From Escherichia phage AV128: a stretch of DNA of 64,000 nt. Location: the sequence record OR352958.1; one strand, given 5' to 3'. Each line of letters opens with the position of its first letter. The stretch's first letter is position 1. Below are positions 5,917 to 38,990 of the stretch, in pieces. The notes under the pieces were generated by a model. The model made no database searches. It had not been told where the DNA came from and worked only from the letters and a program-made list of their open reading frames with translations. Made by a program: the position numbers and the translations under genes.

Positions 5917-6207
5917 TTATAAGGAGACGATTTTAAAATAAGTCACTTCGCCGCCGAGTTGCGGTACAGCGATATATTCGCCGCCGATTTCGGTAATCGT
6001 ATAGACGAAGCCGTTAATCGTTACGCGGCAGGATACGATGTCCTCGTCGCGATACTTGTAAAGGTCGAGGAAGTTGATCGGCTCATAAATAGACTCGATA
6101 GTTGCGTCGACGTTAGAGAGATAAACGCTCTCTAAGGTTTCGCCAAATACGTTAGAGTTTTCGGAAGTCTCGACGCGAGCGGAACGGATAGCGGCTAAAG
6201 TAATCAT
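5917..6207 (-). CDS. small protein, paralog family member A
   Basis: AGGAG RBS; shares VY..NVD.TIE and NG...EIG motifs with 6493-6795 and 7020-7304 products. Confidence 0.55.
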   Translation of the reverse strand: MITLAAIRSARVETSENSNVFGETLESVYLSNVDATIESIYEPINFLDLYKYRDEDIVSCRVTINGFVYTITEIGGEYIAVPQLGGEVTYFKIVSL

Positions 6208-6274
6208 AATAATCTCCTAGTTGGTCGGGCGGGTAGCGACCTATTCGCTACCTCATCCCCTCTCGATATAAAAC

Positions 6275-6303
6275 ATTATAGTCTTAGTGTACGAAGAAGT
6301 AAA
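6275..6303 (-). promoter_or_regulatory. sigma70-like promoter (TTTACT-17-TATAAT) for paralog A
   Basis: Hexamers on minus strand; flanking sequence conserved with the other two paralog promoters. Confidence 0.5.
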
Positions 6304-6322
6304 GCACTTTTCGTTATTTTTT

Positions 6323-6475
6323 CTATTTATTTAAAGCGCGTCTCCCAAGTTCGACGACCCAAGCGGCGGCATCTTCCGCCTTATTAAATTCGTATAGATG
6401 CTTCTTATCTTCGAAGACGTAAAATAAAATACGTCCGAACTTATTAGCCTTCGCGCTTAACTCGATAGTTTTCAT
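6323..6475 (-). CDS. small hypothetical protein (50 aa)
   Basis: AAGGAG RBS 6 nt upstream; below ORF-track cutoff. Confidence 0.4.
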   Translation of the reverse strand: MKTIELSAKANKFGRILFYVFEDKKHLYEFNKAEDAAAWVVELGRRALNK

Positions 6476-6492
6476 CTTCTACTCCTTTTTCG

Positions 6493-6795
6493 TTATTTTG
6501 CGATAAAATATTTATAAGCCTTATCGCCTTCTACGTCGATATACTCGACGATAATTAACGCTTCGCCGCGCGGCGTAACCGTCTCGATAAGGGTAACGGC
6601 TTCGTCGTCGGTCTTCGCGAAGCGGATGGCACTACGTTCGGCGTACTTAATATCGTCGAAGGAAAGGCCGACGAAAGCGACCGCGCGGACCTTAATGATG
6701 GTGGATTCTAGTTCCGCGTTAACGGCGGCGATAAGAGAACGAACGGTTAAACGGTCTTCGTCGTAAGTAATGATAGAAGAGATTAAAGTGGTCAT
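6493..6795 (-). CDS. small protein, paralog family member B
   Basis: ATG at 6795 with GGGAG RBS; track ORF extends to 6852. Confidence 0.55.
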   Translation of the reverse strand: MTTLISSIITYDEDRLTVRSLIAAVNAELESTIIKVRAVAFVGLSFDDIKYAERSAIRFAKTDDEAVTLIETVTPRGEALIIVEYIDVEGDKAYKYFIAK

Positions 6796-10634: not shown

Positions 10635-11027
10635 TTAATCCTGTTTGTATTGAATAGTTAATTTGACGTAAGCCTTTCCGATTACTTTTGCGCGTTTATA
10701 TTCGATTGCGCGAAGGAGTTCGAAACGCATCCAAGTGGTGCGACAAGGTTGACCGTCGACAATCTCATAGATGATGCCGTCGCTATCATCACTTGTCGGG
10801 AATGCATAAATGCTTCCAGAAGAATTGACCATTTTGACAACGGTGTATTCTTCGCCTGCCGTTTTCATAAGGTCAATTTGCAAGTCACGATGGGCCAGTT
10901 CAGCAGCGATGTCAGACTTGCTGTAAAGTCCTTCGTGAGTCATGGCATAGATGTGGCGCGTATAATAGCCGCCCTCGTCGAGTTGCTCGATGTCACGTTG
11001 CCCGACTGCGTATTGTTTATCGGTCAT
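10635..11027 (-). CDS. hypothetical protein
   Basis: ORF in co-oriented early block. Confidence 0.4.
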   Translation of the reverse strand: MTDKQYAVGQRDIEQLDEGGYYTRHIYAMTHEGLYSKSDIAAELAHRDLQIDLMKTAGEEYTVVKMVNSSGSIYAFPTSDDSDGIIYEIVDGQPCRTTWMRFELLRAIEYKRAKVIGKAYVKLTIQYKQD

Positions 11028-11431
11028 AATTTCACCTTCTCATAAACGGTTGCCACTGCACCTTCGCCTTTGTTGATGTGCAGTTTAATGATCACGTGCA
11101 TAACGGCGCGTAAGGGGTTGTCATGCCAGCCGCTGCGCTTGAATGATGCGATGTCCATACTGTCCAACGCGACGTAAGCCGAGTAGTCACGGTTTGGTCT
11201 CTGGTTGCCGCAGTTGCGAACGACGCTGACATCATTGGCAAGCATCACGGGCCAAGCTGCTGTGATGTCGTTGCAATAGTCTCGCGGATAAGGGAAACGG
11301 CCTTGCGGGTCGACTAGCCCGTGCACATACTCGTTGATGATTGCATCGCTTAACTTGAACAGTGAGTCATCGCCGCCGTAAAGCTCGCCGCGCACCAGTT
11401 CTTCTAAACGTTCTTTATGTTGATTCATCAT
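11024..11431 (-). CDS. hypothetical protein
   Basis: ORF in co-oriented early block, stop-start overlap. Confidence 0.4.
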   Translation of the reverse strand: MMNQHKERLEELVRGELYGGDDSLFKLSDAIINEYVHGLVDPQGRFPYPRDYCNDITAAWPVMLANDVSVVRNCGNQRPNRDYSAYVALDSMDIASFKRSGWHDNPLRAVMHVIIKLHINKGEGAVATVYEKVKL

Positions 11432-23713: not shown

Positions 23714-23872
23714 TGTTGACGTAAATTTACGAAAAATAAAACTGAAAATCAGTTTAATTAAAGTGGCATTGCCGCCATAGTTTTTAGTTGCTACTGGCGG
23801 CGACTGAAGGCATAATTAAGTTATCCCAAACGGGGAATATAAAATAAACTAATTTATTTAAGGACTGTGAAT

Positions 23873-24712
23873 ATGGCCGAAGCAATCAAAGTATTATCTA
23901 AAGAAGAAAAACAAGCAGCCGCAGCAGAACGTCGTCGCGTGGCTGAAGAAAAACGCCTGGCTAAAAAGAAAGAAGCCGAAGAAAAACGCCAGAAGCGTGA
24001 GCAGGAAAAACAAGCCAAGCGTGAAGAAGCCGCGCTGAAGCGCAAACAGGCTGCTGATGAGAAGGCTCAGAAGCGTGCTGAAGAAGCAGCTAAGAAAGCT
24101 AAAGAGCGTGCAGAAAAGGCTGCTGCTAAGAAAGCAGAGCGTGAAGCCGCTAAAGCAGCAAAAGAAATCGAAAAGGCAAAGGCCAAAGAAGAAGCCAAGC
24201 GCCTGAAAGCTGAACAAGCTGCTGCTAAGAAAGCAGAGCGTGATCAAGCCCGTGCTGCAGCAAAGGCCGAAAAAGAGAAGGCTAAAGAAGAAGCGAAAGC
24301 GAAACGCAAGGCAGAGCGTGAAGCTGCTAAGATCGCGGCGAAAGAAGCTGCAGAACAGCAAAAAGAACAGCGTAAGAAAGAAGCTGAAGAACGTCGCAAA
24401 GCCATCGCAGAGCGCAAGGCTGCCAAAAAGGCAAACGGTCAGCGCCGTGCAAAAGCTACTCACTTCATCTACACTGGCAACGGCCTGAGCCAGCCGCAGG
24501 AGCACTCCACCCGTGGGCGCGTTCTGGCGGCGATCAAAGAAGGCGAAGTTGGCGTGGCGCAGTCTATCGATGAGCTGGGCGAGAAAGTTAAAGATCAACT
24601 GTTTGGCGCTTCCGTTCGCTCCTACCTGAGCAAGCTGGAAGAGATGGGCCACATCGAGTTTGTCGATGTTGAATCCAACGACGATGCCGAAGACGGTGAT
24701 CAAGCGGAATAA
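23873..24712 (+). CDS. Lys/Glu/Ala-rich coiled-coil protein with globular C-terminal domain
   Basis: About 200 aa of KEA low-complexity repeats; about 100-bp tandem duplication in DNA; AAGGA RBS; track start 23867 is GTG. Confidence 0.6.
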   Translation: MAEAIKVLSKEEKQAAAAERRRVAEEKRLAKKKEAEEKRQKREQEKQAKREEAALKRKQAADEKAQKRAEEAAKKAKERAEKAAAKKAEREAAKAAKEIEKAKAKEEAKRLKAEQAAAKKAERDQARAAAKAEKEKAKEEAKAKRKAEREAAKIAAKEAAEQQKEQRKKEAEERRKAIAERKAAKKANGQRRAKATHFIYTGNGLSQPQEHSTRGRVLAAIKEGEVGVAQSIDELGEKVKDQLFGASVRSYLSKLEEMGHIEFVDVESNDDAEDGDQAE

Positions 24713-24740: not shown

Positions 24741-24768
24741 GACCCACACTTGTTGTGGGTCTTTTTTC
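24741..24768 (+). terminator. Rho-independent terminator
   Basis: Stem gacccaca/gtgggtc, loop cttgtt, T6 tail. Confidence 0.65.
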
Positions 24769-24793
24769 GTCTGTACTAAATAGAAATGACTTG

Positions 24794-24822
24794 TTGCTGT
24801 AAAATAATTTAGCTATTATACT
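24794..24822 (+). promoter_or_regulatory. sigma70-like promoter (TTGCTG-17-TATACT)
   Basis: Hexamers and spacing read directly upstream of the enzyme cluster. Confidence 0.45.
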
Positions 24823-24846: not shown

Positions 24847-25842
24847 ATGAACATGAAACAACCTGTAATGATTATCGGCGGCGGTTTGGCAGGACTTATT
24901 ACCGCGTGTCACTTCCCGAACTCTATTGTGTACGAAGCAGGGGAACGAGCGCAACAGCACAAGGCGCTGCTACGCTTTCGCGGCGAAGAAGTAAGCCGTA
25001 TTACCGGAATCCCTTTTAAGGCCGTGACAGTTGACAAGGCTGTGTATTTTCGCGGCAACTACTACCACGACCATTGCCCAATCAACCTTGCCAATATGTA
25101 TTCCATGAAGGTCACCAATCAGTTTGGCAGCCGTTCAATCATGAAGCTTAAAACTGCAACGCGTTATATTGCGCCTGATGACTTTTATGATCAGCTTGTC
25201 GACAAACTGGGTGACCGCATATTCTTTAATACTCCGGTAGATACTCTTTGCGGCTATAGCGAGACGCCAATCATCAACACGTCGCCGCTGCCAGTCATGA
25301 TGAAGCTGGCTGGGATTGATCAAAAGCTTGATTTCTCATTCGATAAAGCAAACATTCGTGTTTACCGCTTTAAGATTAAACGTAAGTGTGATTTGTATCA
25401 GACAATTTACTTCCCTGACTACTCCGTCAGAACTTATCGCGCATCAATTACTGGTGACACGCTTATCATTGAAACAATTCCTTTGGTCAGCGTGAGTGAA
25501 GCTGCAGTTGAAGCCGCTGGCGGCATCACTCGTTACCGTGACATGAAGCTGCGCGCAGAAGTCGACGAAGTGTTGACAGCCTTTGGCCTCTCATGGAGTG
25601 ACATTGCTCTTGAAGAAGTTGAAAAGGTCGACCAGAAATATGGCAAGATTGTCGACATTCCGAAAGACTTGCGACACGCCCTACTCCTGCAGCTGACTAT
25701 GGATTTGAACGTGTTCAGTGTCGGTCGATTTGCTACCTGGCGCAACATTTTGCTTGATGACGTTGCCCATGACCTTGTTGAAGTTGAAAAACTCATCAAA
25801 GCAAATAACTATCAAAAATTTGCTTATATTGCTAATAAATAA
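24847..25842 (+). CDS. FAD/NAD(P)-binding oxidoreductase
   Basis: N-terminal Rossmann dinucleotide motif MIIGGGLAGL; 331 aa; start 24847 or 24853. Confidence 0.6.
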   Translation: MNMKQPVMIIGGGLAGLITACHFPNSIVYEAGERAQQHKALLRFRGEEVSRITGIPFKAVTVDKAVYFRGNYYHDHCPINLANMYSMKVTNQFGSRSIMKLKTATRYIAPDDFYDQLVDKLGDRIFFNTPVDTLCGYSETPIINTSPLPVMMKLAGIDQKLDFSFDKANIRVYRFKIKRKCDLYQTIYFPDYSVRTYRASITGDTLIIETIPLVSVSEAAVEAAGGITRYRDMKLRAEVDEVLTAFGLSWSDIALEEVEKVDQKYGKIVDIPKDLRHALLLQLTMDLNVFSVGRFATWRNILLDDVAHDLVEVEKLIKANNYQKFAYIANK

Positions 25843-25850
25843 TTTGCTTT

Positions 25851-25887
25851 CTGCTTCAATGGGCGTATACTTTAATCATTGAAGCAG
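25851..25887 (+). other. intergenic hairpin (11-bp perfect stem) without U-tail
   Basis: ctgcttcaatg / cattgaagcag with 15-nt loop between the FAD gene and the next gene. Confidence 0.3.
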
Positions 25888-25907
25888 AACTCATAGAGGA
25901 AACGAAA

Positions 25908-26354
25908 ATGAAACGAATCACTGGAATCGCGCTTGCCGCTACTGCTATTCTCGGCACCATGTATATGGAAGCGACTGAAGCTGCCATCCGCACTTCCGAT
26001 TCAGTCGCTGTTTACGATTGCGAAGCGATGGACGGTAAGACCGCAGCAACGACTGGTGCGAAGATTACCACTTACATCGGTGTGAATGAGCAAGAAGGTC
26101 TGAATATTCAGATTCAGGGATTCACAGGGAAAGGTGCCAACCGTACTCCGTGGATGCAACGTTTCACTTTCGTCCAGCCTCGTTCAACTGGCGGCTTTAT
26201 CAATCTGATTGGTGAAAACCGTTCTGGTGCAGAAATCTTTACATCAATGAGTTCTAATAATGAACCAAAGAAAAGTTTTCAGTTGCTTTATAACGCACAA
26301 TTCGTTTATCATTGCACCTTCTCTGGTGATCAGCAACTAGTGAATTACCGTTAA
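25908..26354 (+). CDS. secreted protein (signal peptide, two Cys)
   Basis: N-terminal MKRITGIALAATAILGTMYMEATEA signal-like segment; GAGGAA RBS. Confidence 0.55.
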   Translation: MKRITGIALAATAILGTMYMEATEAAIRTSDSVAVYDCEAMDGKTAATTGAKITTYIGVNEQEGLNIQIQGFTGKGANRTPWMQRFTFVQPRSTGGFINLIGENRSGAEIFTSMSSNNEPKKSFQLLYNAQFVYHCTFSGDQQLVNYR

Positions 26355-26367
26355 TAGGACAATTAAA

Positions 26368-27171
26368 ATGAAAGTTGAATTAATTCGATACACCCAAGAT
26401 GCACTTGACCTTTTGCTGGAAACAAAGAACACGCGCATGACTGGTAAGCCTGTCTCTGAGATGACGGAATCAGAGAAGCAAGAGCATTGGCGCTACATGC
26501 TTGATACAATCAAGTCTCCTTTTGACTTTGTGGACTATATCTTTGATATCACAGCTGTATCAAAGAACATGACCCATCAGATGGTACGCACACGCACAGG
26601 CGCATATCAAGAACGCACCAGCCGCGCTCAGGAGTCGTCTGCATTTGATGCGATTCGTCCTGCTAAATTCACTTACCCAGAGGATGATCCAAAGGGATGG
26701 ACTCGCCATGACGAGAAGGCCGCTGAACTGGCAGAGAAGTGGGATGATGCGATGGCGACTATCGATGCTTTGTATCAAGAGCTTCGCGCGGCTGGCGCAG
26801 AGATTCAAGATGCACGTGCCGTATTGCCTTCTAATATGCAAACGCATATCATGGCAAAGTTCAACTTGCGCACGCTGCAGCAGATGGCGTCAAACCGCTT
26901 GTGCACGCGCACGCAAGGAGAGTATCAAGAAGTATTCCGCGCAATGGTTGCGGAAGTCCTCAAGGTGCACCCTTGGGCGAATCCATTACTGCAGCCGCAA
27001 TGCATTGGTATGGGTAAGTGCGCATTTCCTCGTCACGGTAAAGCCCATTGCCCTTGGTATCGTGATTGGATGGATACCACGGCACAGCAAGAAGAGTTGC
27101 GCATCCAGTTTTGGAGTGCGATGCCAATCACCAACAATCCAGTTGCTAAAGATGGAGTATCAAAAGGATGA
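26368..27171 (+). CDS. thyX: ThyX-like flavin-dependent thymidylate synthase homolog (divergent)
   Basis: Segment VRTRTGAYQERTSR resembles ThyX RHR-x7-S-x-R motif with H replaced by T; ARAVLPSN...NLRTL block also ThyX-like. Confidence 0.6.
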   Translation: MKVELIRYTQDALDLLLETKNTRMTGKPVSEMTESEKQEHWRYMLDTIKSPFDFVDYIFDITAVSKNMTHQMVRTRTGAYQERTSRAQESSAFDAIRPAKFTYPEDDPKGWTRHDEKAAELAEKWDDAMATIDALYQELRAAGAEIQDARAVLPSNMQTHIMAKFNLRTLQQMASNRLCTRTQGEYQEVFRAMVAEVLKVHPWANPLLQPQCIGMGKCAFPRHGKAHCPWYRDWMDTTAQQEELRIQFWSAMPITNNPVAKDGVSKG

Positions 27172-28040
27172 GCATTAAAAACAGCGAAATCTTAAACGTA
27201 TTCGACCTTGACGGAACGCTGTTTGATGACCGTTGGCGCTTAGACCGCATCAAGGTGGCAGGTCCGTTGTCAGACTATGATGATTATCACAGCGGTATTG
27301 GTTATGATCAGTTCTATCCTCACATTGCATCAGCAGTAGAGTCGGCATCTCTTCGCGGTGAGGCGGTTGAATATTGGACTGCAAGGCCAGAAAAATACAG
27401 ACAAGTGACTTTTGAACGTCTGGACAATGTTTTTCCTTTTGATGAATTTACAATCAAGATGAGAGACTATGGCGACAAACGTCCATCAACTATTATGAAA
27501 TCTGCATGGCTATCGCACGCATTGCGGCACGGCGATTATCGAATCATCAATGTATTCGACGACCGACAAGACGTACTCGCGCGGATGCAAGATGAAGCAT
27601 TGTATTATAATTCCGTTGCTCAAAATAAAATCTCTTTTACATTTAATCTTTGCAAGGCAGGTGAAGTGGTGCAACAATTAGCAATTGATCCAAGCGCAAC
27701 AGGGCAAGAAGAGACTAAGGCTGTGGAAGTTGAACAATCTCCGGCAACTGCCGCCGATATTCTTGATGCAATGGCAGCAACCTTCCGTGAGCGCAACGCT
27801 GTCTATGGCGATAACGCTGTGATGGTAGGTCAGGTTATGCAAGTGCTTTTCCCTAATGGCGTGACGTTGAAAACGCCGGAAGACTACCACATGTGGCATC
27901 TGTTCGAACTTAAGATTGTCAAGCTTACACGCTTCGCAATCAGCGGCCTGAAGCACGAAGACTCTATACACGATGATGGTGTTTACAGCGCCATGTGTGA
28001 ACGTCTTGTTAACACCCATAATATTAATTTCAATAAATAG
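27168..28040 (+). CDS. HAD-superfamily phosphatase-like protein with extra C-terminal domain
   Basis: VFDLDGTL motif I and VFDDRQDV motif IV-like; C-terminal 120 aa unassigned. Confidence 0.55.
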   Translation: MSIKNSEILNVFDLDGTLFDDRWRLDRIKVAGPLSDYDDYHSGIGYDQFYPHIASAVESASLRGEAVEYWTARPEKYRQVTFERLDNVFPFDEFTIKMRDYGDKRPSTIMKSAWLSHALRHGDYRIINVFDDRQDVLARMQDEALYYNSVAQNKISFTFNLCKAGEVVQQLAIDPSATGQEETKAVEVEQSPATAADILDAMAATFRERNAVYGDNAVMVGQVMQVLFPNGVTLKTPEDYHMWHLFELKIVKLTRFAISGLKHEDSIHDDGVYSAMCERLVNTHNINFNK

Positions 28041-28069
28041 TTTACTTGTGCGTTTCGATGAGTTATATT
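28041..28069 (+). promoter_or_regulatory. sigma70-like promoter (TTTACT-17-TATATT) with conserved leader TCATCGAAACGAA
   Basis: Hexamers read directly; homologous to promoter at 35032-35060. Confidence 0.45.
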
Positions 28070-28105
28070 TATCTCATCGAAACGAAGTCCAAAAAGGATA
28101 AATAA

Positions 28106-28789
28106 ATGAAAAAAGTAATTGTTGTAACTGGCTGCAATTCCGGTCTTGGTAAATCCATTTTTGACACCCTTGGCGCTTACGGTCATGAAGTTGTCGGTAT
28201 TGATTTGGAGAACGGCTATGACATCCGTAACGCGAAACAGATGAAAGAGCTTCTCTCTCAATACGACGTAGAAGGCTTGATCAACTGCGCTGGCGTCAAC
28301 TCCAACAACTGGTTCGAAGATGTTAACTACGAAGAGTTCAATCGCGTTATGCACACCAACGCCTTCTCTTTCGTCAACACGACTCAGGCCGCGCTGAAAA
28401 GTCTTATTGACAACAAAGGTTTTGTGATCAACATCGTTTCCAACGCTGCGCATATTCCTATGACGTCCAGCTTGTGTTATAATGCTTCCAAGGCTGCTGC
28501 GCTCATGATTAGCAAGCAGATGGCTCACGAGCTTACGCCTAAATACGGGATCACGGTATTCTCTATTAGTCCTAACAAGCTACGTGGTACTGGCATGTCC
28601 AAACAGATTGAAGATGCTGTTTGCGCGACTCGCGGCTGGACTCCTGAGTATGCTGCTGAATACCAGAAAAAGGCGTTGATGAATGGATTGGAGACTGAGC
28701 CGCAAGTAATTGCTGACTTCATTCGACATATCTTAATTACGGGCGCATGGCGCTTTATGTCTGGCACTGATATTCCATTTGGTAAATAA
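28106..28789 (+). CDS. short-chain dehydrogenase/reductase (SDR) family oxidoreductase
   Basis: VTGCNSGLGKS cofactor-binding motif and YNASK catalytic motif. Confidence 0.7.
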   Translation: MKKVIVVTGCNSGLGKSIFDTLGAYGHEVVGIDLENGYDIRNAKQMKELLSQYDVEGLINCAGVNSNNWFEDVNYEEFNRVMHTNAFSFVNTTQAALKSLIDNKGFVINIVSNAAHIPMTSSLCYNASKAAALMISKQMAHELTPKYGITVFSISPNKLRGTGMSKQIEDAVCATRGWTPEYAAEYQKKALMNGLETEPQVIADFIRHILITGAWRFMSGTDIPFGK

Positions 28790-28885
28790 ATCACGAACAC
28801 TTGAAGTTATCACACCCGCTCCTGAAAAGAAACAGGACGAAGACAACACAGTAATCAATCAATAATATTTAATTAAGGAAACAAA

Positions 28886-29437
28886 ATGCCACATTTTAAA
28901 ATTGAACAAATCGCCCTGTCAATTCCAGATGCTCAGCGCGCACAGGATTTCTTGGCTAAAATTGGTCTGACAGAGTGGTTCCATGATCACGTTGTTGCTA
29001 CTGGTCGCGTATTTGAAGCTGATGAATTCAAAGGTCAGCGTGGATATTGCACCAATGAAGCTGACTTGCGCTTCAATTATCAAGCTGGAAACGGAACTGA
29101 TGGCGGCGCTGGTAAGCCTCTTGAGCTTGAAATCCTTGACTACACAAAGGGGTGTAACTGGATCAGCGAAAACATTGAAATGCTCGATGCGCACGACAAT
29201 CAGGTTAGCCATCTTGGTATGCACGTGACTGCCGCTGAACTTGCTGAATGGCGCAAGTTCTTTAAAGAAGAAGGCATTCAGGTTGCGCAGGAAGTTGTGA
29301 CCGGCTCTCACACCAACCCAAACATTGCTGGTCAGCGTCGTTACAACTATGTGATCTTTGATACGCGTGAAATCATTGGTGTTGACCTTAAGTTCATCGT
29401 GCGGTTGAATCAAGACGGTACTCCGTACACTGTATAA
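28886..29437 (+). CDS. possible glyoxalase/VOC-fold protein
   Basis: N-terminal pattern loosely resembling VOC fold; weak assignment. Confidence 0.35.
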   Translation: MPHFKIEQIALSIPDAQRAQDFLAKIGLTEWFHDHVVATGRVFEADEFKGQRGYCTNEADLRFNYQAGNGTDGGAGKPLELEILDYTKGCNWISENIEMLDAHDNQVSHLGMHVTAAELAEWRKFFKEEGIQVAQEVVTGSHTNPNIAGQRRYNYVIFDTREIIGVDLKFIVRLNQDGTPYTV

Positions 29438-29453
29438 CGAATCGTGAATCTGT

Positions 29454-29478
29454 GGCCGTCCTAATGGGCGGCCTTTTT
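29454..29478 (+). terminator. Rho-independent terminator
   Basis: Stem ggccgtcc/gggcggcc (one G-U), loop taat, T5 tail. Confidence 0.6.
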
Positions 29479-29491
29479 GTAGGAGGCCAAT

Positions 29492-30034
29492 GTGTTATTT
29501 CTCCCTTATGACTTCGAAACAACCGGATTAACCGTGCACCCGAAAGCGCCGCTTGGGATGCAGCCGCGCCCTATTGAATTTGCAGGCCTGTTGACGGACG
29601 GCAAAGAGATTCTTGAAACGTTCGAGTTCATAATTAATCCTGAAATTGTGATTGAAGAAATCATCACAAAGATTACCGGATTAACAAATGAAGACCTTGA
29701 GTGCAATCCACCATTCATCCATTTCGTTCCGCAACTAAAAGAAATATTCAAGAAGACGGATGCAACTATAGCGCACAACCATGCGTTTGATAAAAACATT
29801 CTTGACTATGCATTACAGCGCGAAGGTCTTACACTTGGTGATGTTAATTTTCCAGAAATAAACATTTGTACAGTAGAGCAAACCTTGCCTATTTTTGGCC
29901 GAAGAGTTAAGCTTCAAGAGCTGTATGAATTATATTTCGGAAAATATGAACAGAAACACCGTGCATTAGACGACGTAATATTGCTGCACAAAGTTTGCCA
30001 ACAAATTGGCGTATATGACATCTGGAGCAAATAA
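29492..30034 (+). CDS. DnaQ-like 3'-5' proofreading exonuclease (DEDDh)
   Basis: Exo motifs DFETTG, HNHAFD, HRALDD; GTG start with AGGAGG RBS. Confidence 0.75.
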   Translation: MLFLPYDFETTGLTVHPKAPLGMQPRPIEFAGLLTDGKEILETFEFIINPEIVIEEIITKITGLTNEDLECNPPFIHFVPQLKEIFKKTDATIAHNHAFDKNILDYALQREGLTLGDVNFPEINICTVEQTLPIFGRRVKLQELYELYFGKYEQKHRALDDVILLHKVCQQIGVYDIWSK

Positions 30035-30191: not shown

Positions 30192-33089
30192 ATGTTTCCA
30201 CAATTGAGAGTTCGCAGCGGTTACACGTTCAAAGAAGTATATGGACGGCATCCTGAAATTATAGCACGGCTCAAAGAGTTGGGCTGCGAAGTCGCGGCAT
30301 TAGTTGATAACAATACATGGGGTCACGTCCGATGGGAAAAGGAATGTCAGAAGAATGATATCAAGCCTGTGTTCGGCATGGAGATTCCAATCATCGACCC
30401 TGATGCAGACCCGAAAAAGGGATTCAAACCGAAGGCTTGGATATTGGCTCTTGACCTGAAATCCTTTTACAATGCGACCACGCTTGCAACACAACGCGGC
30501 GGACTGACCCGTGCAGAGTTCGGGGCGCTCGATGGAGTCATTAAATTCTGTGGCGGTGCCGTGGAGTTGCTGCGACCAGAGGACTACGATTATATAGACG
30601 TCAACCCATCATCGTTCCTTTTGGCCAAGCGCCAGGTATTGGCTCACCGCAGCAACGGAAGGCCGCTTGTTTTAACCGGATACAACCACATGCCTTCACC
30701 TGCGCACGTTGACTTTGCTTATGCTTGGGAAGTTCGCGACACGGTTAAGCCGCACTGCATCGTTGACGCGGAAGACTTGCGCAAACAGCTTAAAGGAATC
30801 CTGACCGAAGATGAGTTGAATCAAGCAACGGCCAATGCGGTTGACATTGCAAACGGAATCGTGGGACTTGACCTGAAGCTGCGCAAGGCACCGATTATCC
30901 ACCTTGCTGGTGACATGGTAAAACTTGCTCGCGAGGGGATGGAGTACCGCCTTAAGGCAGGTCACATCAAAGAATGGACTCAGGAATATGAGGACCGATT
31001 CAACGAAGAGATTCACCAGATTCAGCTGAAAGATTTCGACTCATACTTTCTGGTGGTAGCGGACCTTGTTCGATTCGCAAAAACAAAAATGCTCGTCGGA
31101 CCCGCTCGCGGCTCATCGGCTGGTTCACTGGTTTGTTATTGCCTCGGCATCACGGAAGTCGACCCAATCCCGTATAAGCTGCTATTTGCCCGATTCATCG
31201 ACGTAAGCCGCGCCGACCTTCCTGATATTGATATTGACTTTGAGGATACCAAACGCTATATGGTGTTTGATTACCTTAAAGAAAAATACGGCGAAATGAA
31301 CGTTGCAAAGCTTGGCAACATCAACACGCTTAAGGCCAACTCAGTAATGGCTCAGGTTGGTAAGAAGTTCAACATTGGCTATCACGAAACGGCCAACATT
31401 AAAAACGCATTGCTTGAATACTCATCCGGTGACGCCCGTTATGGTCACGGCCTGGAGGATACCTTTGCAACAACGACCACGGGTCAAGAGTTCGTGGCGA
31501 AATATCCTGATGCCGCGCGTTGCATGGGCGACCTTGAGATTCACCCGTCCCACACAGGGGTGCACGCAGCGGGAATCATTGTGTGTAATGACCCAATCTC
31601 TGATTACTGTACTGTAACTGCAGAAGGGATTGCGCAAATCGATAAGCCTGACAGCGAATACCTTAACCTTTTGAAGCTTGATGCACTGGGCCTTCGTACT
31701 CTCGGCATTATTTCTGATACAGGCGTTATTGATGCTGAAACGCTTTACGGAATCAAGCTTGATGATCAAAGCGTACTTGACATTCTTAACGAAAACAAGA
31801 TGTCAGGCATCTTCCAGTTTGAAGGTGACGCTGTACGCTCAGTAACAAACTTTGTGCACGTCGACAACTTTAACAAAATCGACAACCTGACAGCTTTGGG
31901 TCGACCTGGCCCGTTGTCATCCGGTATGGCCCAGAAATACATTGAACGCGCGGCAGGGCGTGCGCCGATTGAATACGACGTGCCGCAGCTTGAGCCGTAC
32001 TTAAAAGAGACTTACGGAGTGTTTCTTTACCAAGAGCAAATCATGGCCGTGGTTAAAGAGATTGGTTCATTTGACTGGGCGAAAACGTCCGCTGTACGTA
32101 AGGCAATGTCAGGCCGTAAGGGTGAGGAATACTTCAACAAGCTTGGCGAGGACTTCGTTGCAGGCGCAATAAATAACGGCGTACCGGAAGCGGATGCAAG
32201 AAAGCTTTGGCAAGCAATGGCTACGTTCGGGTCATGGGGCTTTAACAAGTCGCACTCCGTGTCATACGCGGTCGTGACCTACTGGACATTGTGGCTTAAG
32301 CGACACTACCCGTTGGAATTTGCCGCTGCCTGCTTACGCGCTGCTAAGGACGAAGACCAGACGATTGCGATATTACGTGAACTTGCGAAGGAAGGCGTGG
32401 ATTACGTTCCAATCGACCCTGATCACTCTTCAATGAACTGGACAATCGCGAACGGAAAGCTAATCGGCGGCATTATGAACGCGAAAGGGTACGGAATGGT
32501 GAAGGCGATGAAGTACATCGAAGCGCGTGAAGCCGGAACCTTAACGCAGAAGCAAAAGGACGCATTGGCCAATGCTGAAGTAAAATATGGCGACCTTACA
32601 GAGATGCACACAAAGTTCGGCTGGGCGTATAATGACCCGTATCTGATTGGTGTGACGTCCGGCGCTTCAATACGCCAGATGAAGGAAGTCGGTGATGACG
32701 AGCGCGCAATAGTAATCGGCAAGTTGACAAAGAAAGTGCTTGCGGACGAGAACGAAGCAACACGCATCCGTAAACGACTTGAGCGCGGCATCTATACAAA
32801 GCACGGCAAGCTTAAAAAGGGTCTTCAAGCTGATGGCCGCTACGCAGAGTTTGACCAGTACGGGAACAAGCTTGAGACTCAGTTCATCGACCTTATGTGC
32901 AAAGACGACTCGACCGACTCGCCAATGCGCTTCAGGATTCGTCCAGAGAAGTTCCAGAAGTACGGGAAGTACATCGCTGAAAACGTCGGGAACGGCGCAT
33001 TCTTCCTGATGAAAGGTCGTAAGCTTGAAGGCATTGACATGTTCATCGTTGACGTGATCAAACAGGTGTATCCAGATGGCAACAAATAA
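30192..33089 (+). CDS. dnaE: DNA polymerase III alpha-like replicase (DnaE family, PHP domain), short form
   Basis: Blocks GPARGSSAGSLVCY, PDIDIDF, RPGPLSSGM, FGSWGFNKSHSVSYA match conserved DnaE motifs; 965 aa. Confidence 0.9.
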   Translation: MFPQLRVRSGYTFKEVYGRHPEIIARLKELGCEVAALVDNNTWGHVRWEKECQKNDIKPVFGMEIPIIDPDADPKKGFKPKAWILALDLKSFYNATTLATQRGGLTRAEFGALDGVIKFCGGAVELLRPEDYDYIDVNPSSFLLAKRQVLAHRSNGRPLVLTGYNHMPSPAHVDFAYAWEVRDTVKPHCIVDAEDLRKQLKGILTEDELNQATANAVDIANGIVGLDLKLRKAPIIHLAGDMVKLAREGMEYRLKAGHIKEWTQEYEDRFNEEIHQIQLKDFDSYFLVVADLVRFAKTKMLVGPARGSSAGSLVCYCLGITEVDPIPYKLLFARFIDVSRADLPDIDIDFEDTKRYMVFDYLKEKYGEMNVAKLGNINTLKANSVMAQVGKKFNIGYHETANIKNALLEYSSGDARYGHGLEDTFATTTTGQEFVAKYPDAARCMGDLEIHPSHTGVHAAGIIVCNDPISDYCTVTAEGIAQIDKPDSEYLNLLKLDALGLRTLGIISDTGVIDAETLYGIKLDDQSVLDILNENKMSGIFQFEGDAVRSVTNFVHVDNFNKIDNLTALGRPGPLSSGMAQKYIERAAGRAPIEYDVPQLEPYLKETYGVFLYQEQIMAVVKEIGSFDWAKTSAVRKAMSGRKGEEYFNKLGEDFVAGAINNGVPEADARKLWQAMATFGSWGFNKSHSVSYAVVTYWTLWLKRHYPLEFAAACLRAAKDEDQTIAILRELAKEGVDYVPIDPDHSSMNWTIANGKLIGGIMNAKGYGMVKAMKYIEAREAGTLTQKQKDALANAEVKYGDLTEMHTKFGWAYNDPYLIGVTSGASIRQMKEVGDDERAIVIGKLTKKVLADENEATRIRKRLERGIYTKHGKLKKGLQADGRYAEFDQYGNKLETQFIDLMCKDDSTDSPMRFRIRPEKFQKYGKYIAENVGNGAFFLMKGRKLEGIDMFIVDVIKQVYPDGNK

Positions 33090-35351: not shown

Positions 35352-35909
35352 ATGAGCAATATTAATTGGGAAGATGATTTGCCGCAGGTTGCTCCTGAGA
35401 GCATTCAAGAGCGCCTTGCGCGCTTAGTATCTGAACTGGCAGAACGCCAAGAAGCTTTGACAGAGCTTGAAGATGAAGCTGATATGCAAAAGCAGCGTAT
35501 CAGTGAAATCAAAACTGTTTTGCTTCCTGGCGTTATGGATGAGCTTGGCGTGTCCGAAATCAAGCTTGAGGACAAGACCAAAATCAAGGTCGAGTCCAAG
35601 GTGAATGCTTCAATCAAGAAAGAAAACGAATTAAAAGTTTTCGATTGGCTTGTAAACAACGGTTACGGCGGCCTGATCAAGTCCAGCGTCACGGCTGAGT
35701 TTGGTCGCGAAGAAATCGAACAGGCGCAAGAGATTGTTGCCGCGCTGCGTGAAGATGGTGTTGAAGCCACATTGAAACAAGGCGTTCATTCTGCTACACT
35801 GAAGTCATTTGTAAAAGAACAGCTGGAAGCAGGCAATCCAGTTAGTGAAGATATTAGCGTTTTTGAATACAAAGAAGCTAAAATAACCTTGCCTAAAAGC
35901 AAAAAGTAA
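35352..35909 (+). CDS. hypothetical protein with N-terminal coiled coil
   Basis: AAGGTAA RBS; heptad-like N-terminus. Confidence 0.45.
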   Translation: MSNINWEDDLPQVAPESIQERLARLVSELAERQEALTELEDEADMQKQRISEIKTVLLPGVMDELGVSEIKLEDKTKIKVESKVNASIKKENELKVFDWLVNNGYGGLIKSSVTAEFGREEIEQAQEIVAALREDGVEATLKQGVHSATLKSFVKEQLEAGNPVSEDISVFEYKEAKITLPKSKK

Positions 35910-35968
35910 TTTAACCTTTATCTTGAAATCAGGTTGCCACGAAACTTGATACTATAGGAAAATATCAA

Positions 35969-36829
35969 ATGTCTAAGAAAGAAACTACCGAAGTTGCAGC
36001 GAAAAACACCCAGATGTCCGCTATGGCTGATTTTGTCGACATGACCGATTTTGGCGCTGGTTTTGAAGGTGCCGATGCCGATGCGTATGCCATTCCTTTT
36101 ATCGTCGTCCTGCAGAAGATGTCTCCTATGGTCGACGAAGATGATCCAAAACACGTTCCTGGTGCAAAAGCTGGCATGCTTTACAACACCGTAACGGGTG
36201 AGTTGTACGACGGAAAGAAAGGCGTTCAGATCATTCCTTGCGCATTCAAACGCACCTTCATCCTTTGGGGCGGTCGCGAATCCGATGATAAAGGCTTCAA
36301 AGGTGAATTTACTAAAGAGCATGTTGACGCAGAAGTCGCGGCAGGCCGCGCTGTTGAAATCAACGGTAAGGTCTTTGTGCCGGACGAAAATGGCAAGGTG
36401 CACGAGAAGAAATCACCTTACTACGCTGATACGCGCAACCACTTTGTGATCCTTTTGAACGAAGAAACAGGCGAATTTGGCAGCGCCATGCTTTCCCTGA
36501 CTTCTTCAATGATCAAGCCGTCTCGCATGCTGATGACCGCGCTTCAGCAGAAGAAAGTTCAGACTCCACAAGGTCTGAAAACGCCGCCGACCTTTATGAA
36601 CATTGTTCGCATGGGCACTGCATCTCAGTCCAAAGACGGCAACACCTGGTCAGTTCTTAAGTTTGAGCTGGAAGGTCTGGTGCAGGATAAAGGTCTGTAC
36701 GAAGTCGCTAAAGCATTCCACAACGACGTAGTTGGCGGCAACGTTAACATTGACCGCAGCAAGCAGGAAGAAGCAAGCGGTGCCGCTGGTCCTGTCAATG
36801 AAACTCCTACCGACGCAGAAGAGTTTTAA
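35969..36829 (+). CDS. possible ssDNA-binding protein (acidic C-terminal tail ending in Phe)
   Basis: C-terminus TPTDAEEF resembles SSB acidic tails; function by analogy only. Confidence 0.35.
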   Translation: MSKKETTEVAAKNTQMSAMADFVDMTDFGAGFEGADADAYAIPFIVVLQKMSPMVDEDDPKHVPGAKAGMLYNTVTGELYDGKKGVQIIPCAFKRTFILWGGRESDDKGFKGEFTKEHVDAEVAAGRAVEINGKVFVPDENGKVHEKKSPYYADTRNHFVILLNEETGEFGSAMLSLTSSMIKPSRMLMTALQQKKVQTPQGLKTPPTFMNIVRMGTASQSKDGNTWSVLKFELEGLVQDKGLYEVAKAFHNDVVGGNVNIDRSKQEEASGAAGPVNETPTDAEEF

Positions 36830-36886: not shown

Positions 36887-37405
36887 ATGATAGAAAGAAT
36901 TGTACCGCTCTTGAAGATTCTGGCCCTTGTTGGCGCGTTTGCCGCTGGATCATACGTTGAAGACCTGCAGCAAACCAACGCATCACTGGCCAAGGATAAT
37001 CAATATCTGACATCGCTTAATGAGCGTAAGGACAAGATAAATGCACTCGAAGAGCAAATTGCATCTTTACAGGTTGAATCGGCATCGGCATATGAGAAAG
37101 GTCGCCAGGAAGCGCAACAGGTTGCTGATGACACTATTGCTCGTTACAAGTCTGGGAATATCAAGTTGCGCGCGCAACTCAGCTGCTCCCGTGAGTTACT
37201 CAGGAGTATGCCCGACTCTGCGACCACTGGACGCCTCTCTATCCCAGAAGGAAACTGTGGACTATCAGAAGAGGATGTCAGATTTCTTGTTCAGTTCGCC
37301 GCAGAAACAAATCGATTAAAAGAGAAAGTTAATAGCTTGATTGATACTTATAATCAGGCTAAAATAAAAATCGATCAATTCAATGCATCAAAGGAAAATA
37401 AATGA
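36887..37405 (+). CDS. Rz: i-spanin (Rz-like inner-membrane spanin)
   Basis: N-terminal TM helix, long coiled coil, embedded lipoprotein ORF in +1 frame. Confidence 0.6.
   Translation: MIERIVPLLKILALVGAFAAGSYVEDLQQTNASLAKDNQYLTSLNERKDKINALEEQIASLQVESASAYEKGRQEAQQVADDTIARYKSGNIKLRAQLSCSRELLRSMPDSATTGRLSIPEGNCGLSEEDVRFLVQFAAETNRLKEKVNSLIDTYNQAKIKIDQFNASKENK
37092..37319 (+). CDS. Rz1: o-spanin (Rz1-like outer-membrane lipoprotein) embedded in i-spanin
   Basis: Basic n-region, hydrophobic core, lipobox ISSC, Pro-rich mature part; wholly inside 36887-37405. Confidence 0.55.
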   Translation: MRKVARKRNRLLMTLLLVTSLGISSCARNSAAPVSYSGVCPTLRPLDASLSQKETVDYQKRMSDFLFSSPQKQID

Positions 37406-38025
37406 AACAGATTTATGCAAACATTCGCCAGTGGGCTTCTGACCGTAACATCATCCAAGGTTGCGACCTTAAGGACCAATACCCGAAGCTTATCAGCGAG
37501 TTCGGGGAGTTAACCGACCACGTTGATCAACTCCATGACCTTGTGTTCTTCGACCCTGAAATTGGATATACAGAGCAAGCCATCTGTGACTTGCAGGCAG
37601 CAATTAAGGACGACATCGGCGATTGCCTTGTTGTGTTGACCATCCTGGCAGCGCAAAACGGTACTGAAATCGAAAACATTAATGGCGGCGGTTGCGCTGA
37701 TAAAGGTGCTCACCCTCATTCATTTATCCTTCGCCTGGCAAAGACCCTTGGACGACTTGGTGATGCAATCGCTAAGAATCAGACCATGGATATTGACGTG
37801 ACCATCATGGCCGCAGTCGATTACCTTTCCGGCGTAGCGCATGATTATGGCCTTCGCTTATCCGACTGTGCGCAAGCGGCCTACGAAGACATCAAGGACC
37901 GCAAAGGTGTCATGTACAACGGAACGTTCATCAAATCTACTGATCCAGCTTATGAGCACTCCTGCAAAATGGTAAAGAAGCTGGAACTTGAAGACCGTGT
38001 GATCAGAGAAGTTACAGGACAATAA
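37402..38025 (+). CDS. MazG-like all-alpha nucleoside triphosphate pyrophosphohydrolase
   Basis: EFGELTDHV and DDIGDCLVVL resemble MazG/HisE metal-binding motifs. Confidence 0.5.
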   Translation: MKQIYANIRQWASDRNIIQGCDLKDQYPKLISEFGELTDHVDQLHDLVFFDPEIGYTEQAICDLQAAIKDDIGDCLVVLTILAAQNGTEIENINGGGCADKGAHPHSFILRLAKTLGRLGDAIAKNQTMDIDVTIMAAVDYLSGVAHDYGLRLSDCAQAAYEDIKDRKGVMYNGTFIKSTDPAYEHSCKMVKKLELEDRVIREVTGQ

Positions 38026-38027
38026 TT

Positions 38028-38990
38028 ATGACAGCATTAAAACCAATGAAGGGTTGCCAACGTAAGCAGATTATCGAGCGCGGCGAGGACGTGCCGCTGC
38101 CTTGCGGACTGTCATTCAAGGTCGATGGCATACGTGCAATGGCGTATGACAAATTGCCAATGGGCACTTCCGGCATGCCGTTGCGCAATGTTCAAATCAA
38201 AAAAGAGTTCCTCTTCTTGGGTGAATTAATTCACGGACTTGATGGAGAGCTAATCGACGGCAATCCGAATGACAAGAACGTCATGCAACAGGCCTATACT
38301 GCATGCATGAATACTGATGCAATCACTAACTTTACATGGTGGGTGTTTGATGACTTCAGCGACCCTGATTTGCCTTTTGAAAAGCGTTATGCAAACTATC
38401 GAGCTAGAGTTGCTGAGGTCAATCAGCATCTCATCAACCATGGTCGACGCCCATTCCTTCGCGCTCTCGAATATCGAAACATCGAAAATATGGAACAGTA
38501 CGCGGCGATGCAAATCGAAGCAGACCAGCTTGGATATGAAGGCTTGTATGGCAAGTCTTGGACGGGCAAATACAAGCATGGCCGCGCAACGCCAAAGTCA
38601 CGTGATGTATGGAAGGACAAGCCGTGGACGGATGAAGAAGGATTGATCATAGACTTCGTTGAGATGATGGAGAACAACAACGAAGCATTCATTGACGAAT
38701 TGGGTCGCACCAAGCGTTCAAAAGAGGCTGAAGGTTTAGTTGCGAAAGGATACCTTGGCTCATTCGTAGTCGTCAATCCAAAATATGTGGATGAGAAAGG
38801 TGAAATGATTCCTTTCCGCGTCTCCGCTGGTTCGATGCCTATGGCAGAGAGAAAAATGCTTTGGGAGAATCGCGAGAACTATCGCGATAAATACCTGACA
38901 TACAAATTCTTTAACTTTGGCATCGTTGACGTGCCGCGCTCTGCTTTGTATAAATGCTTCCGTGATATTACCGATATGGAGTATTTTTAA
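38028..38990 (+). CDS. ATP-dependent DNA ligase
   Basis: Motif I KVDGIR (KxDGxR adenylation site); EGLIID and later Lys-rich blocks; 320 aa. Confidence 0.65.
   Translation: MTALKPMKGCQRKQIIERGEDVPLPCGLSFKVDGIRAMAYDKLPMGTSGMPLRNVQIKKEFLFLGELIHGLDGELIDGNPNDKNVMQQAYTACMNTDAITNFTWWVFDDFSDPDLPFEKRYANYRARVAEVNQHLINHGRRPFLRALEYRNIENMEQYAAMQIEADQLGYEGLYGKSWTGKYKHGRATPKSRDVWKDKPWTDEEGLIIDFVEMMENNNEAFIDELGRTKRSKEAEGLVAKGYLGSFVVVNPKYVDEKGEMIPFRVSAGSMPMAERKMLWENRENYRDKYLTYKFFNFGIVDVPRSALYKCFRDITDMEYF

Follow-up and report, generated by a model that had tools for sequence, protein, structure and literature searches.

A conserved trio of ThyX-like, UGM-like and HAD-DUF6378 genes beside the replicase of Wifcevirus and Pbunavirus phages, candidate core of a thymidine-hypermodification pathway

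The window analysed here is a 64,000-nucleotide (nt) stretch of Escherichia phage AV128 (sequence record OR352958.1; one strand, 5' to 3'), and our subject is a cluster of six genes at positions 24847-29437, three of which (gp1, gp3 and gp4) are candidates for the core of a ThyX-based pathway that hypermodifies thymidine. The window is most of the ~68-kb genome of a Wifcevirus myovirus: the region is 98% identical to the Wifcevirus coliphage Escherichia phage vB_EcoM_WFH, and 28 other Wifcevirus records, among them FEC19, ECML-117, Mansfield and the BASEL phages Bas98-101, match the block at 93-98% DNA identity. An earlier, sequence-only reading had described six co-oriented open reading frames (ORFs), and all six are found on the + strand at the coordinates it gave. 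The core genes are gp1 (24847..25842, 331 amino acids (aa)), for a divergent flavin adenine dinucleotide (FAD)-type flavoprotein resembling UDP-galactopyranose mutase (UGM); gp3 (26368..27171, 267 aa), for an atypical ThyX-family flavoenzyme; and gp4 (27168..28040, 290 aa), for a fusion of a PNKP-type HAD phosphatase with DUF6378. The reading frames of gp3 and gp4 overlap by 4 nt. Between gp1 and gp3 lies gp2 (25908..26354, 148 aa), a small protein with a signal-peptide-like N-terminus and a genus-specific insert that probably has no part in the pathway, and gp4 is followed by the optional pair gp5 (28106..28789, 227 aa), a classical short-chain dehydrogenase/reductase (SDR), and gp6 (28886..29437, 183 aa), a weakly supported VOC (glyoxalase/dioxygenase)-like protein.

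The six genes are bracketed by strong intrinsic terminators, both on the + strand and both also marked in the deposited annotation of phage Mansfield. The left one (24741..24761; GACCCACAC-TTGTT-GTGGGTC followed by TTTTTT) ends an upstream Lys/Ala/Glu-rich gene, and the right one (29454..29473; GGCCGTCC-TAAT-GGGCGGCC followed by TTTTT), which the sequence-only reading had placed correctly, has an 8-bp stem with 7 GC pairs. The same reading had given the operon a promoter of its own near 24794, a weak call: the best sigma-70-like match on the + strand reaches 9/12 of the consensus (24781..24808; TAGAAA-16-AATAAT), and the region contains 13 promoter-like sites versus 10.3 +/- 3.4 in shuffled sequence, that is, no enrichment. 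The cluster does sit, as had been claimed, directly before genes for a DEDDh (RNase_T) exonuclease (29492..30034, +) and a PolIII-alpha replicase of 965 aa (30192..33089, +); its upstream neighbours encode a RecD/Dda-like helicase and the Lys/Ala/Glu-rich protein.

The product of gp3 is a member of the ThyX family (PF02511, E=2.9e-30, 105.9 bits versus a cut-off of 24.8) and matches ThyX entries in the PDB down to 3.7e-5, but it fails the NCBI ThyX equivalog TIGR02170 (81.8 bits versus a cut-off of 87.9). Its residues were mapped on T. maritima ThyX (Tm numbering) by pairwise HMMER alignment, a 12-sequence MAFFT alignment and hmmalign of 150 representatives. Retained are Q75, R78, R80, E86, R90, R147 and R174, and with them the entire set that binds deoxyuridine monophosphate (dUMP; Q75, R78, R80, R90, R147 and R174), which is kept across the clade. 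Replaced are H53 (by I), H59 (F), H79 (T), S88 (T) and Y91 (A), such that gp3 departs from the ThyX motif RHRxxxxxxxS(x)RY and reads RTR....TSRA. H53 is a conserved His that stacks on the folate pteridine or the reduced flavin and hydrogen-bonds Y91, and mutation of Y91 slows flavin oxidation ~1000-fold (PMC11940539). The combination of I, V or L at position 53, F at 59 and a non-aromatic residue at 91, here called the 'ISF' signature, recurs in ~120 of the 150 best clusters from a search of 1.84 billion representatives, and among these 150 the canonical H..H..RHR..SRY pattern is not met before rank 105. Two distant ISF members (39-42% identity to gp3, one of them with RHR) have a gp1 homologue directly upstream; members of an 'LAF/RQR/SRF' ThyX subtype have none in that position. 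The distant ThyX representatives checked for a cellular genome context all lie on short metagenomic contigs, which are uninformative on this point. The C-terminal ~60 residues of gp3 form an extension with a conserved Cys pattern (QPQCIGMGKCAFPRHGKAHCPWYRDWMD), which could be a metal or disulfide site; Pbunavirus has the extension too, a mycobacteriophage ThyX has part of it and T. maritima ThyX lacks it.

For gp1, no match was obtained in Pfam, NCBIfam, PHROG function or PDB sequence searches; phmmer and profile searches of the PDB aligned only the GxGxxG stretch of amine oxidases, and the UGM sequence signature was not found. The protein nonetheless has a GxGxxG motif and a confidently predicted flavoprotein fold of the UGM/protoporphyrinogen-oxidase/amine-oxidase kind, with UGM as the best structural match to the model, and the deposited annotation of phage Mansfield reports an HHpred match of the gp1 counterpart to UGM 1I8T. 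We take the likeness of gp1 to UGM as a predicted fold assignment, not a family assignment.

Residues ~1-175 of gp4 form a PNKP-type HAD phosphatase (HAD_PNKP, 5e-8) with HAD motifs I-IV (DxDxT, T/S, K, DD) and a Pnkp-like core fold. Residues ~190-290 form a four-helix domain that is far better conserved than the HAD part; of 16 family members, 11 match Pfam DUF6378 there, at best with E 3.7e-6. A Pfam scan of gp4 found no P-loop 5'-kinase domain, the C-terminal half being DUF6378, so the RefSeq/PHROG label 'polynucleotide kinase/phosphorylase' is misleading. In some lineages HAD and DUF6378 are encoded as separate genes. We considered DUF6378 as a MazG/DUF1599-like pyrophosphatase and found this unsupported, since hhalign shows no relation to the MazG-like protein of the window; nor did hhalign relate DUF6378 to the HAD-DUF3310 protein of a Cronobacter phage.

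To place these genes in a broader context, IMG/VR was scanned with a gp1 alignment, giving 480 confirmed loci; the 80 loci analysed are the best gp1 matches and so are biased towards relatives, and co-occurrence was counted in the 40 distinct loci whose sequence runs on for 6 kb or more past the gp1 homologue. All 40 have ThyX, and HAD, DUF6378, exonuclease and PolIII-alpha are found in 39 each, in the same order in 39, a conservation that partly reflects shared ancestry because the loci are the closest relatives of gp1. By tblastn, 361 phage records contain gp1 and ~356 the gp3 clade, with nearly the same counts by taxon (Pseudomonas 292/292, Escherichia 26/26, Serratia 9/9). Pseudomonas phages F8 and 14-1 (Pbunavirus) carry syntenic homologues of gp1 (~40% identity), gp3 (~49%) and gp4, in the order helicase, Lys-rich protein, gp1 homologue, five small ORFs, ThyX, HAD-DUF6378 fusion, exonuclease, PolIII-alpha. 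A Ralstonia phage of 40 kb has the trio too, as does a Rhizobium phage of 206 kb (Kleczkowskaviridae), where the cluster lies near genes for dUTPase and ribonucleotide reductase (RNR); in the podoviruses Cronobacter Ss1 and Vibrio VA-RY-3 the third gene encodes a weak HAD with DUF3310 instead of DUF6378. Given that the block is kept at 93-98% DNA identity within Wifcevirus and that gene order is kept well beyond the genus, the arrangement is no chance product.

The remaining genes of the cluster are distributed differently. The 'secreted' label of gp2 comes solely from its signal-peptide-like N-terminus (MKRITGIALAATAILGTMYMEA); profile searches with gp2 gave no family matches, tblastn found it in 28 Wifcevirus records with no homologues outside the genus, and in Pbunavirus the gp2 slot is occupied by five small ORFs unrelated to it; gp2 is taken as an insert that probably stands outside the pathway. 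The gp5 translation has the VTGCNSGLG, NCAG and YNASK motifs of a classical SDR (adh_short, 1e-31). For gp6, the Glyoxalase_4 match (E=0.004, 17.8 bits) lies below the cut-off of 27, and PF13669 is found on few of its homologues (among the best 120 of 690). The SDR gene is present in 30 of the 40 IMG/VR loci and gp6 in 31 of them and in 54 phage records; the two co-vary, both occurring in 30 loci, neither in 8 and VOC only in 1. Both occur in enterobacterial, Xanthomonas, Xylella, Luteibacter and Aeromonas relatives, and both, like gp2, are absent from F8 and 14-1. In Mansfield and Bas98 the SDR and VOC genes are separated by one or two additional small ORFs; the window has a 96-nt gap there (28790-28885).

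These results bear on the labels proposed from the sequence alone. The ThyX-like (PF02511, 3e-30), HAD phosphatase fusion (5e-8) and SDR (1e-31) calls are borne out; 'FAD oxidoreductase' stands as regards the motif and the fold of gp1 and finds no sequence match in Pfam, NCBIfam or the PDB; VOC-like keeps weak support from a match under the curated cut-off. What does not survive is the six-gene unit, for the co-occurrence analysis that had been proposed as a check recovers the trio gp1, gp3 and gp4 in 39-40 of 40 loci, with SDR and VOC as an optional pair and the secreted protein as an insert of one genus, so that the six genes are no obligatory unit.

Relatives carry extra genes inside the cluster, and we examined these as possible tailoring enzymes. 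As a general account this fails: most encode HNH or GIY-YIG homing endonucleases or unknowns. HNH and GIY-YIG genes interrupt the cluster in loci L004, L018, L030, L038 and L087, and such repeated insertions mark the region as a hotspot for mobile elements. Other insertions are of a different kind. A gene for nucleotide modification associated domain 5 (Nmad5, PF18757, 2e-14) lies between ThyX and HAD in two IMG/VR loci (L099:6454-6969 and L085:5389-5904); at least six loci have, in the same place, a homologue of Pyr_excise, a pyrimidine DNA glycosylase of the T4 endonuclease V type (in environmental relatives L016 and L017 at 6199-6561, and in L063-L066 at ~10977-11336); and some relatives have a second HAD_PNKP gene inside the cluster. 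In Vibrio phage VA-RY-3 (L007:8369-9124) a sulfotransferase (Sulfotransfer_3, 6e-7) is found between the HAD-like gene and the exonuclease, in the slot that SDR and VOC hold in Wifcevirus. It is a speculation that the glycosylase, a Pnkp-type 3'-phosphatase and the phage ligase might together provide an excision-resynthesis route.

Modified DNA has been reported in phages that carry the trio. According to the END-nuclease preprint, F8 and 14-1, earlier thought to be unmodified, contain modified thymidines, of 362 Da and 390 Da, which it describes as a tetrose sugar-alcohol and a cyclised pentose derivative; roughly one T in four is replaced, in TG context, and F8 DNA is cut by EcoRI. The preprint did not identify the biosynthetic genes and notes that such phages had been overlooked because they lack known modification genes. 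Our searches of the literature on ThyX-based hypermodification, Pbunavirus modification genes and DUF6378 found no prior gene assignment; the Wifcevirus description paper reports no digestion data, and the paper on phage T-dioxygenases does not cover these phages. F8 and 14-1, whose modifications differ, are only 80% identical in the HAD fusion and 78-82% in the adjacent small ORFs, versus 96-99% in polymerase, exonuclease and helicase, a pattern that we count in favor of a role in modification, although ORF070, which lies outside the cluster, diverges even more (57% identity).

For Wifcevirus, of which Pbunavirus are distant relatives according to the BASEL completion paper, the corresponding observation is restriction resistance in vivo. 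That paper gives for Bas98 site counts of 36 for EcoRI (18 sites), 6 for EcoRV, 93 for EcoCFT_II and 82 for EcoP1. Bas98 gives about as many plaque-forming units on EcoCFT_I, EcoRI, EcoRV and EcoCFT_II hosts as on the vector control, no plaques form on EcoP1, and the authors have no known protection mechanism to offer; the same paper reports that Bas98-101 depend on the O16 O-antigen. The corresponding counts for the window are 26 for EcoRI, 12 for EcoRV and 76 for AGACC. Counts of 5-mers in the Bas98 and Bas97 genomes reproduce the published EcoRI, EcoRV and AGACC numbers, and CACAG is the sole 5-mer that gives both 93 in Bas98 and 115 in Bas97, from which we infer that EcoCFT_II recognises CACAG/CTGTG. 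This site would contain two TG dinucleotides (in CTGTG), and the EcoP1 site (AGACC/GGTCT) contains none; EcoKI (GTGC) and EcoAI-type (TGAC) sites also contain TG. A thymine modification in TG context, as in F8, would thus explain why one of two type III systems is resisted and the other is not. A pure TG-motif account is nevertheless incomplete, as EcoRI (GAATTC) and EcoRV (GATATC) sites lack TG. Resistance to these enzymes is not common to F8, so any Wifcevirus motif would have to be broader, or another factor contributes.

Taken together, we propose that gp1, gp3 and gp4 form the core of a new ThyX-based thymidine-hypermodification pathway, with every enzymatic step inferred and with an overall probability that we put at roughly 0.5. 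The proposal draws on several lines of circumstantial support: gp3 is atypical at conserved, functionally important ThyX residues; this ThyX is near-invariably linked to a UGM-like gene and a HAD-DUF6378 gene; Nmad5, Pyr_excise, sulfotransferase and second HAD genes are inserted in the clusters of relatives; trio-carrying Pbunavirus have modified thymidine and Wifcevirus resist restriction; no glycosyltransferase, TET/JBP dioxygenase or kinase turned up in Pfam scans of nine other sizeable window ORFs, and none is named in the Mansfield annotation; and the best structural match of gp1 is to a sugar-acting flavoenzyme. What ties the gene identities, folds, residue substitutions, synteny and co-occurrence observed here to modification chemistry is association, and on that basis the trio is the best available candidate for the genes behind the sugar-like thymine modification of the Pseudomonas relatives. 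By analogy with F8 and 14-1, the product in phage DNA would most likely be a thymidine that carries a sugar or polyol at C5. The suggestion that a ThyX-like enzyme makes a non-canonical nucleotide or modifies DNA had been raised from the sequence alone, next to that of a metabolic takeover module; it gains from all of this, shorn of the six-gene unit to which it was attached, and the literature agrees with its premise that known hypermodification routes are ThyA-like.

Known ThyX chemistry, in which a flavin-N5 adduct is followed by a C5 exocyclic methylene open to trapping by nucleophiles, and in which free formaldehyde can be used via a flavin carbinolamine, makes either an O-linked (5-hydroxymethyldeoxyuridine (5-hmdU)-type) or a C-linked (aldose-derived) product conceivable. 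In the pathway that we envisage, gp3 would bind dUMP and, by flavin-N5 one-carbon chemistry at a remodelled carbon-donor/folate site, generate a C5 exocyclic-methylene species; this intermediate, or a 5-hydroxymethyl product, would gain a sugar-derived group handled by the UGM-like gp1, and gp4 would strip the phosphate from a sugar-phosphate, nucleotide or DNA-3'-phosphate intermediate. The SDR and the VOC-like protein might then reduce or isomerise the appended sugar, and the most economical reading is that these two, and Nmad5, glycosylase or sulfotransferase elsewhere, are lineage-specific tailoring enzymes. DNA modified in this way could account for the full plating efficiency of Wifcevirus on EcoRI, EcoRV, type I and EcoCFT_II hosts. 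A bolder version, which we regard as a long shot, is that gp3 takes its carbon from a sugar aldehyde (an aldose or aldose-phosphate) and not from methylene-tetrahydrofolate, through a flavin-N5 carbinolamine/iminium, with gp1 opening or delivering the sugar and the HAD phosphatase trimming a C-C-linked polyhydroxyalkyl- or C-glycosyl-deoxyuridine. The arithmetic agrees with the reported masses, deoxyuridine plus aldopentose minus O being 362.3, the same as 'thymidine + tetrose sugar alcohol', and deoxyuridine plus aldohexose minus H2O being 390.3, which equals 'thymidine + cyclised pentose'; since O-linked 5-hmdU isomers share these formulae, C- and O-linkage cannot be told apart by mass.

Several points weigh against a modification pathway. 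A modified nucleoside has been demonstrated for Pbunavirus F8 and 14-1, and its extension to Wifcevirus, from restriction resistance in vivo, is by analogy. As ~75% of Pbunavirus T is ordinary, deoxythymidine monophosphate (dTMP) is required in any case, and gp3, with every dUMP-binding residue in place, could simply make it. A TG-specific modification calls for a DNA-acting enzyme, a role demonstrated for none of the six proteins; TG specificity in turn does not explain the resistance to EcoRI and EcoRV. Nor did Pfam scans of the cluster and of nine other sizeable window ORFs, or the HHpred-based Mansfield annotation, reveal a glycosyltransferase, not every small ORF having been scanned. Lastly, synteny on the side of the replicase may reflect vertical inheritance of a replication and nucleotide-supply module among 80 loci biased towards relatives.

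These considerations lead to the most serious alternative, which we hold to be possible but doubtful: gp3 is a divergent viral thymidylate synthase with an ordinary product, gp1 its partner flavoprotein (a reductase or a folate-independent supplier of one-carbon units or formaldehyde) and gp4 a pool-balancing nucleotide phosphatase, while SDR, VOC and gp2 are unrelated and modification or resistance is encoded elsewhere. Besides the intact dUMP site, the use of formaldehyde by ThyX makes a folate-independent variant chemically plausible and fits the loss of the folate-stacking His53; the cluster is always beside replication genes, and in the Rhizobium phage near dUTPase and RNR; the ISF-type signature in ~120 of the 150 top clusters points to a large, successful subfamily; and many lineages dispense with SDR and VOC. 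However, Tyr91 substitutions cripple canonical ThyX, and simple dTMP supply accounts neither for the UGM-like fold and the strictly conserved DUF6378 nor for the Nmad5, Pyr_excise and sulfotransferase insertions, and leaves Pbunavirus thymidine modification and Wifcevirus restriction resistance without candidate genes. That the cluster is merely an ordinary ThyX in one transcription unit with independently acquired morons of no joint function is unlikely: the genus-specific gp2, the optional SDR and VOC and the frequent HNH and GIY-YIG insertions do indicate a region that tolerates cargo, but 39-40 of the 40 loci have the UGM-like, ThyX, HAD and DUF6378 genes together and in a set order, as do unrelated phage types, and even the optional pair is split in a single locus, against 30 with both and 8 with neither. 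A takeover of host sugar or envelope metabolism, in which gp1 would be a true UGM that remodels nucleotide-sugar pools with SDR, VOC and phosphatase, is very improbable, for although UGM is the best match to the predicted gp1 fold, Bas98-101 need the O16 O-antigen, which contains galactofuranose (Galf) and could be a target, and a genuine phage UGM has been proposed as the UDP-Galf source of Rhizobium phage RL38J1 (there for DNA glycosylation), no UGM sequence signature was detected in gp1, whose family occurs in phages of Pseudomonas, Vibrio, Rhizobium, Ralstonia and Xanthomonas regardless of host glycan and is always coupled to ThyX and the replicase, never to lysis or receptor genes.

The surroundings of the cluster deserve brief mention. 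The Lys/Ala/Glu-rich, low-complexity protein that adjoins it upstream (23867-24712, +, 281 aa) is named 'TolA protein' in some records; its C-terminal ~90 residues are kept in Pbunavirus ORF066 (~53% identity), and in metagenomic relatives a protein of 259-306 aa fills its slot. A 269-aa antisense ORF opposite this gene (23894-24703) is probably an artefact of repetitive composition. On the other side, the exonuclease gene has a GTG start 19 nt past the operon terminator, and a second, overlapping hairpin (29470-29488) spans its ribosome-binding region; with the terminator so close, expression of exonuclease and polymerase may need read-through or an unrecognised promoter. The replication module also includes, some 8 kb further downstream, genes for a MazG-like nucleotide pyrophosphohydrolase (37402-38025, +; a weak Pfam match, with the same name in the Mansfield and Bas98 annotations) and for an ATP-dependent DNA ligase (38028-38990, +). 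Phages with modified bases commonly carry an enzyme that clears deoxynucleoside triphosphates as a companion. Two genes at 35352-36829 (+) match Pam3 gp33-like (DUF7307, 3e-37) and Pam3_Gp34 (4e-86); this Pam3-type pair also flanks the homologous cluster in environmental contigs, tying these phages to a wider Pam3-like replication module.

If the trio does hypermodify thymidine, its route to hypermodified DNA would be the first, within the literature found, to rest on a ThyX-family enzyme together with a UGM-like flavoprotein, and would broaden what is known of how flavin-dependent enzymes alkylate pyrimidines. The gp1 family, with 361 phage records in GenBank and 480 loci in IMG/VR, would then provide a sequence marker for modified genomes in hundreds of phages. 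Few Pseudomonas phages are used in therapy as much as Pbunaviruses, whose hypermodified thymidine was found only recently, and the resistance of Wifcevirus coliphages to most of the restriction systems tested has no known cause; naming core genes makes both puzzles directly testable, with consequences for the design of phage therapy, for artefacts in sequencing and for sensitivity to END and other modification-dependent nucleases.

How the proposed pathway relates to known systems can be stated gene by gene. Similar to canonical ThyX (T. maritima TM0449), gp3 has the PF02511 fold and the dUMP-binding Arg/Gln set; unlike it, gp3 has RTR for RHR, replacements of H53, H59, S88 and Y91, a score below the TIGR02170 cut-off, a Cys-containing C-terminal extension and an obligatory linkage to a UGM-like gene. 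For gp1, UGM (Glf, the family of the enzyme proposed for RL38J1) is the best structural match to the predicted fold, but the UGM sequence-family signature was not found, and gp4 differs from T4 Pnkp and Pnkp1 in having DUF6378 as its C-terminal partner in place of a kinase domain. Pbunavirus F8 and 14-1 share syntenic gp1, gp3 and gp4 homologues beside the same exonuclease and polymerase, and their modification is sugar- or polyol-like; they lack SDR, VOC and gp2, theirs is the only modification shown directly, and F8 DNA is cut by EcoRI whereas Bas98 is unrestricted by EcoRI in vivo. Thymidine hypermodification as such is already known from phages M6, ViI, phiW-14 and SP10, whose pathways combine a ThyA-family dUMP hydroxymethylase, a 5-hmdU DNA kinase, aGPT-Pplase and tailoring enzymes. 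Pfam scans of the cluster and of nine other sizeable window ORFs, and the HHpred-based Mansfield annotation, revealed no ThyA-type hydroxymethylase, 5-hmdU DNA kinase or aGPT-Pplase, not every small ORF having been scanned. If our proposal is true, the likeness would extend to a phage-encoded, multi-enzyme decoration of thymidine at C5, chemistry by way of an exocyclic C5-methylene open to attack by a nucleophile, partial replacement of T and protection from restriction. The difference lies in the starting point, for those routes begin with a ThyA-family hydroxymethylase and go on to employ a P-loop DNA kinase and aGPT-Pplase, whereas the route proposed here, through a ThyX-family enzyme, a UGM-like flavoprotein and a HAD-DUF6378 fusion, would be new.

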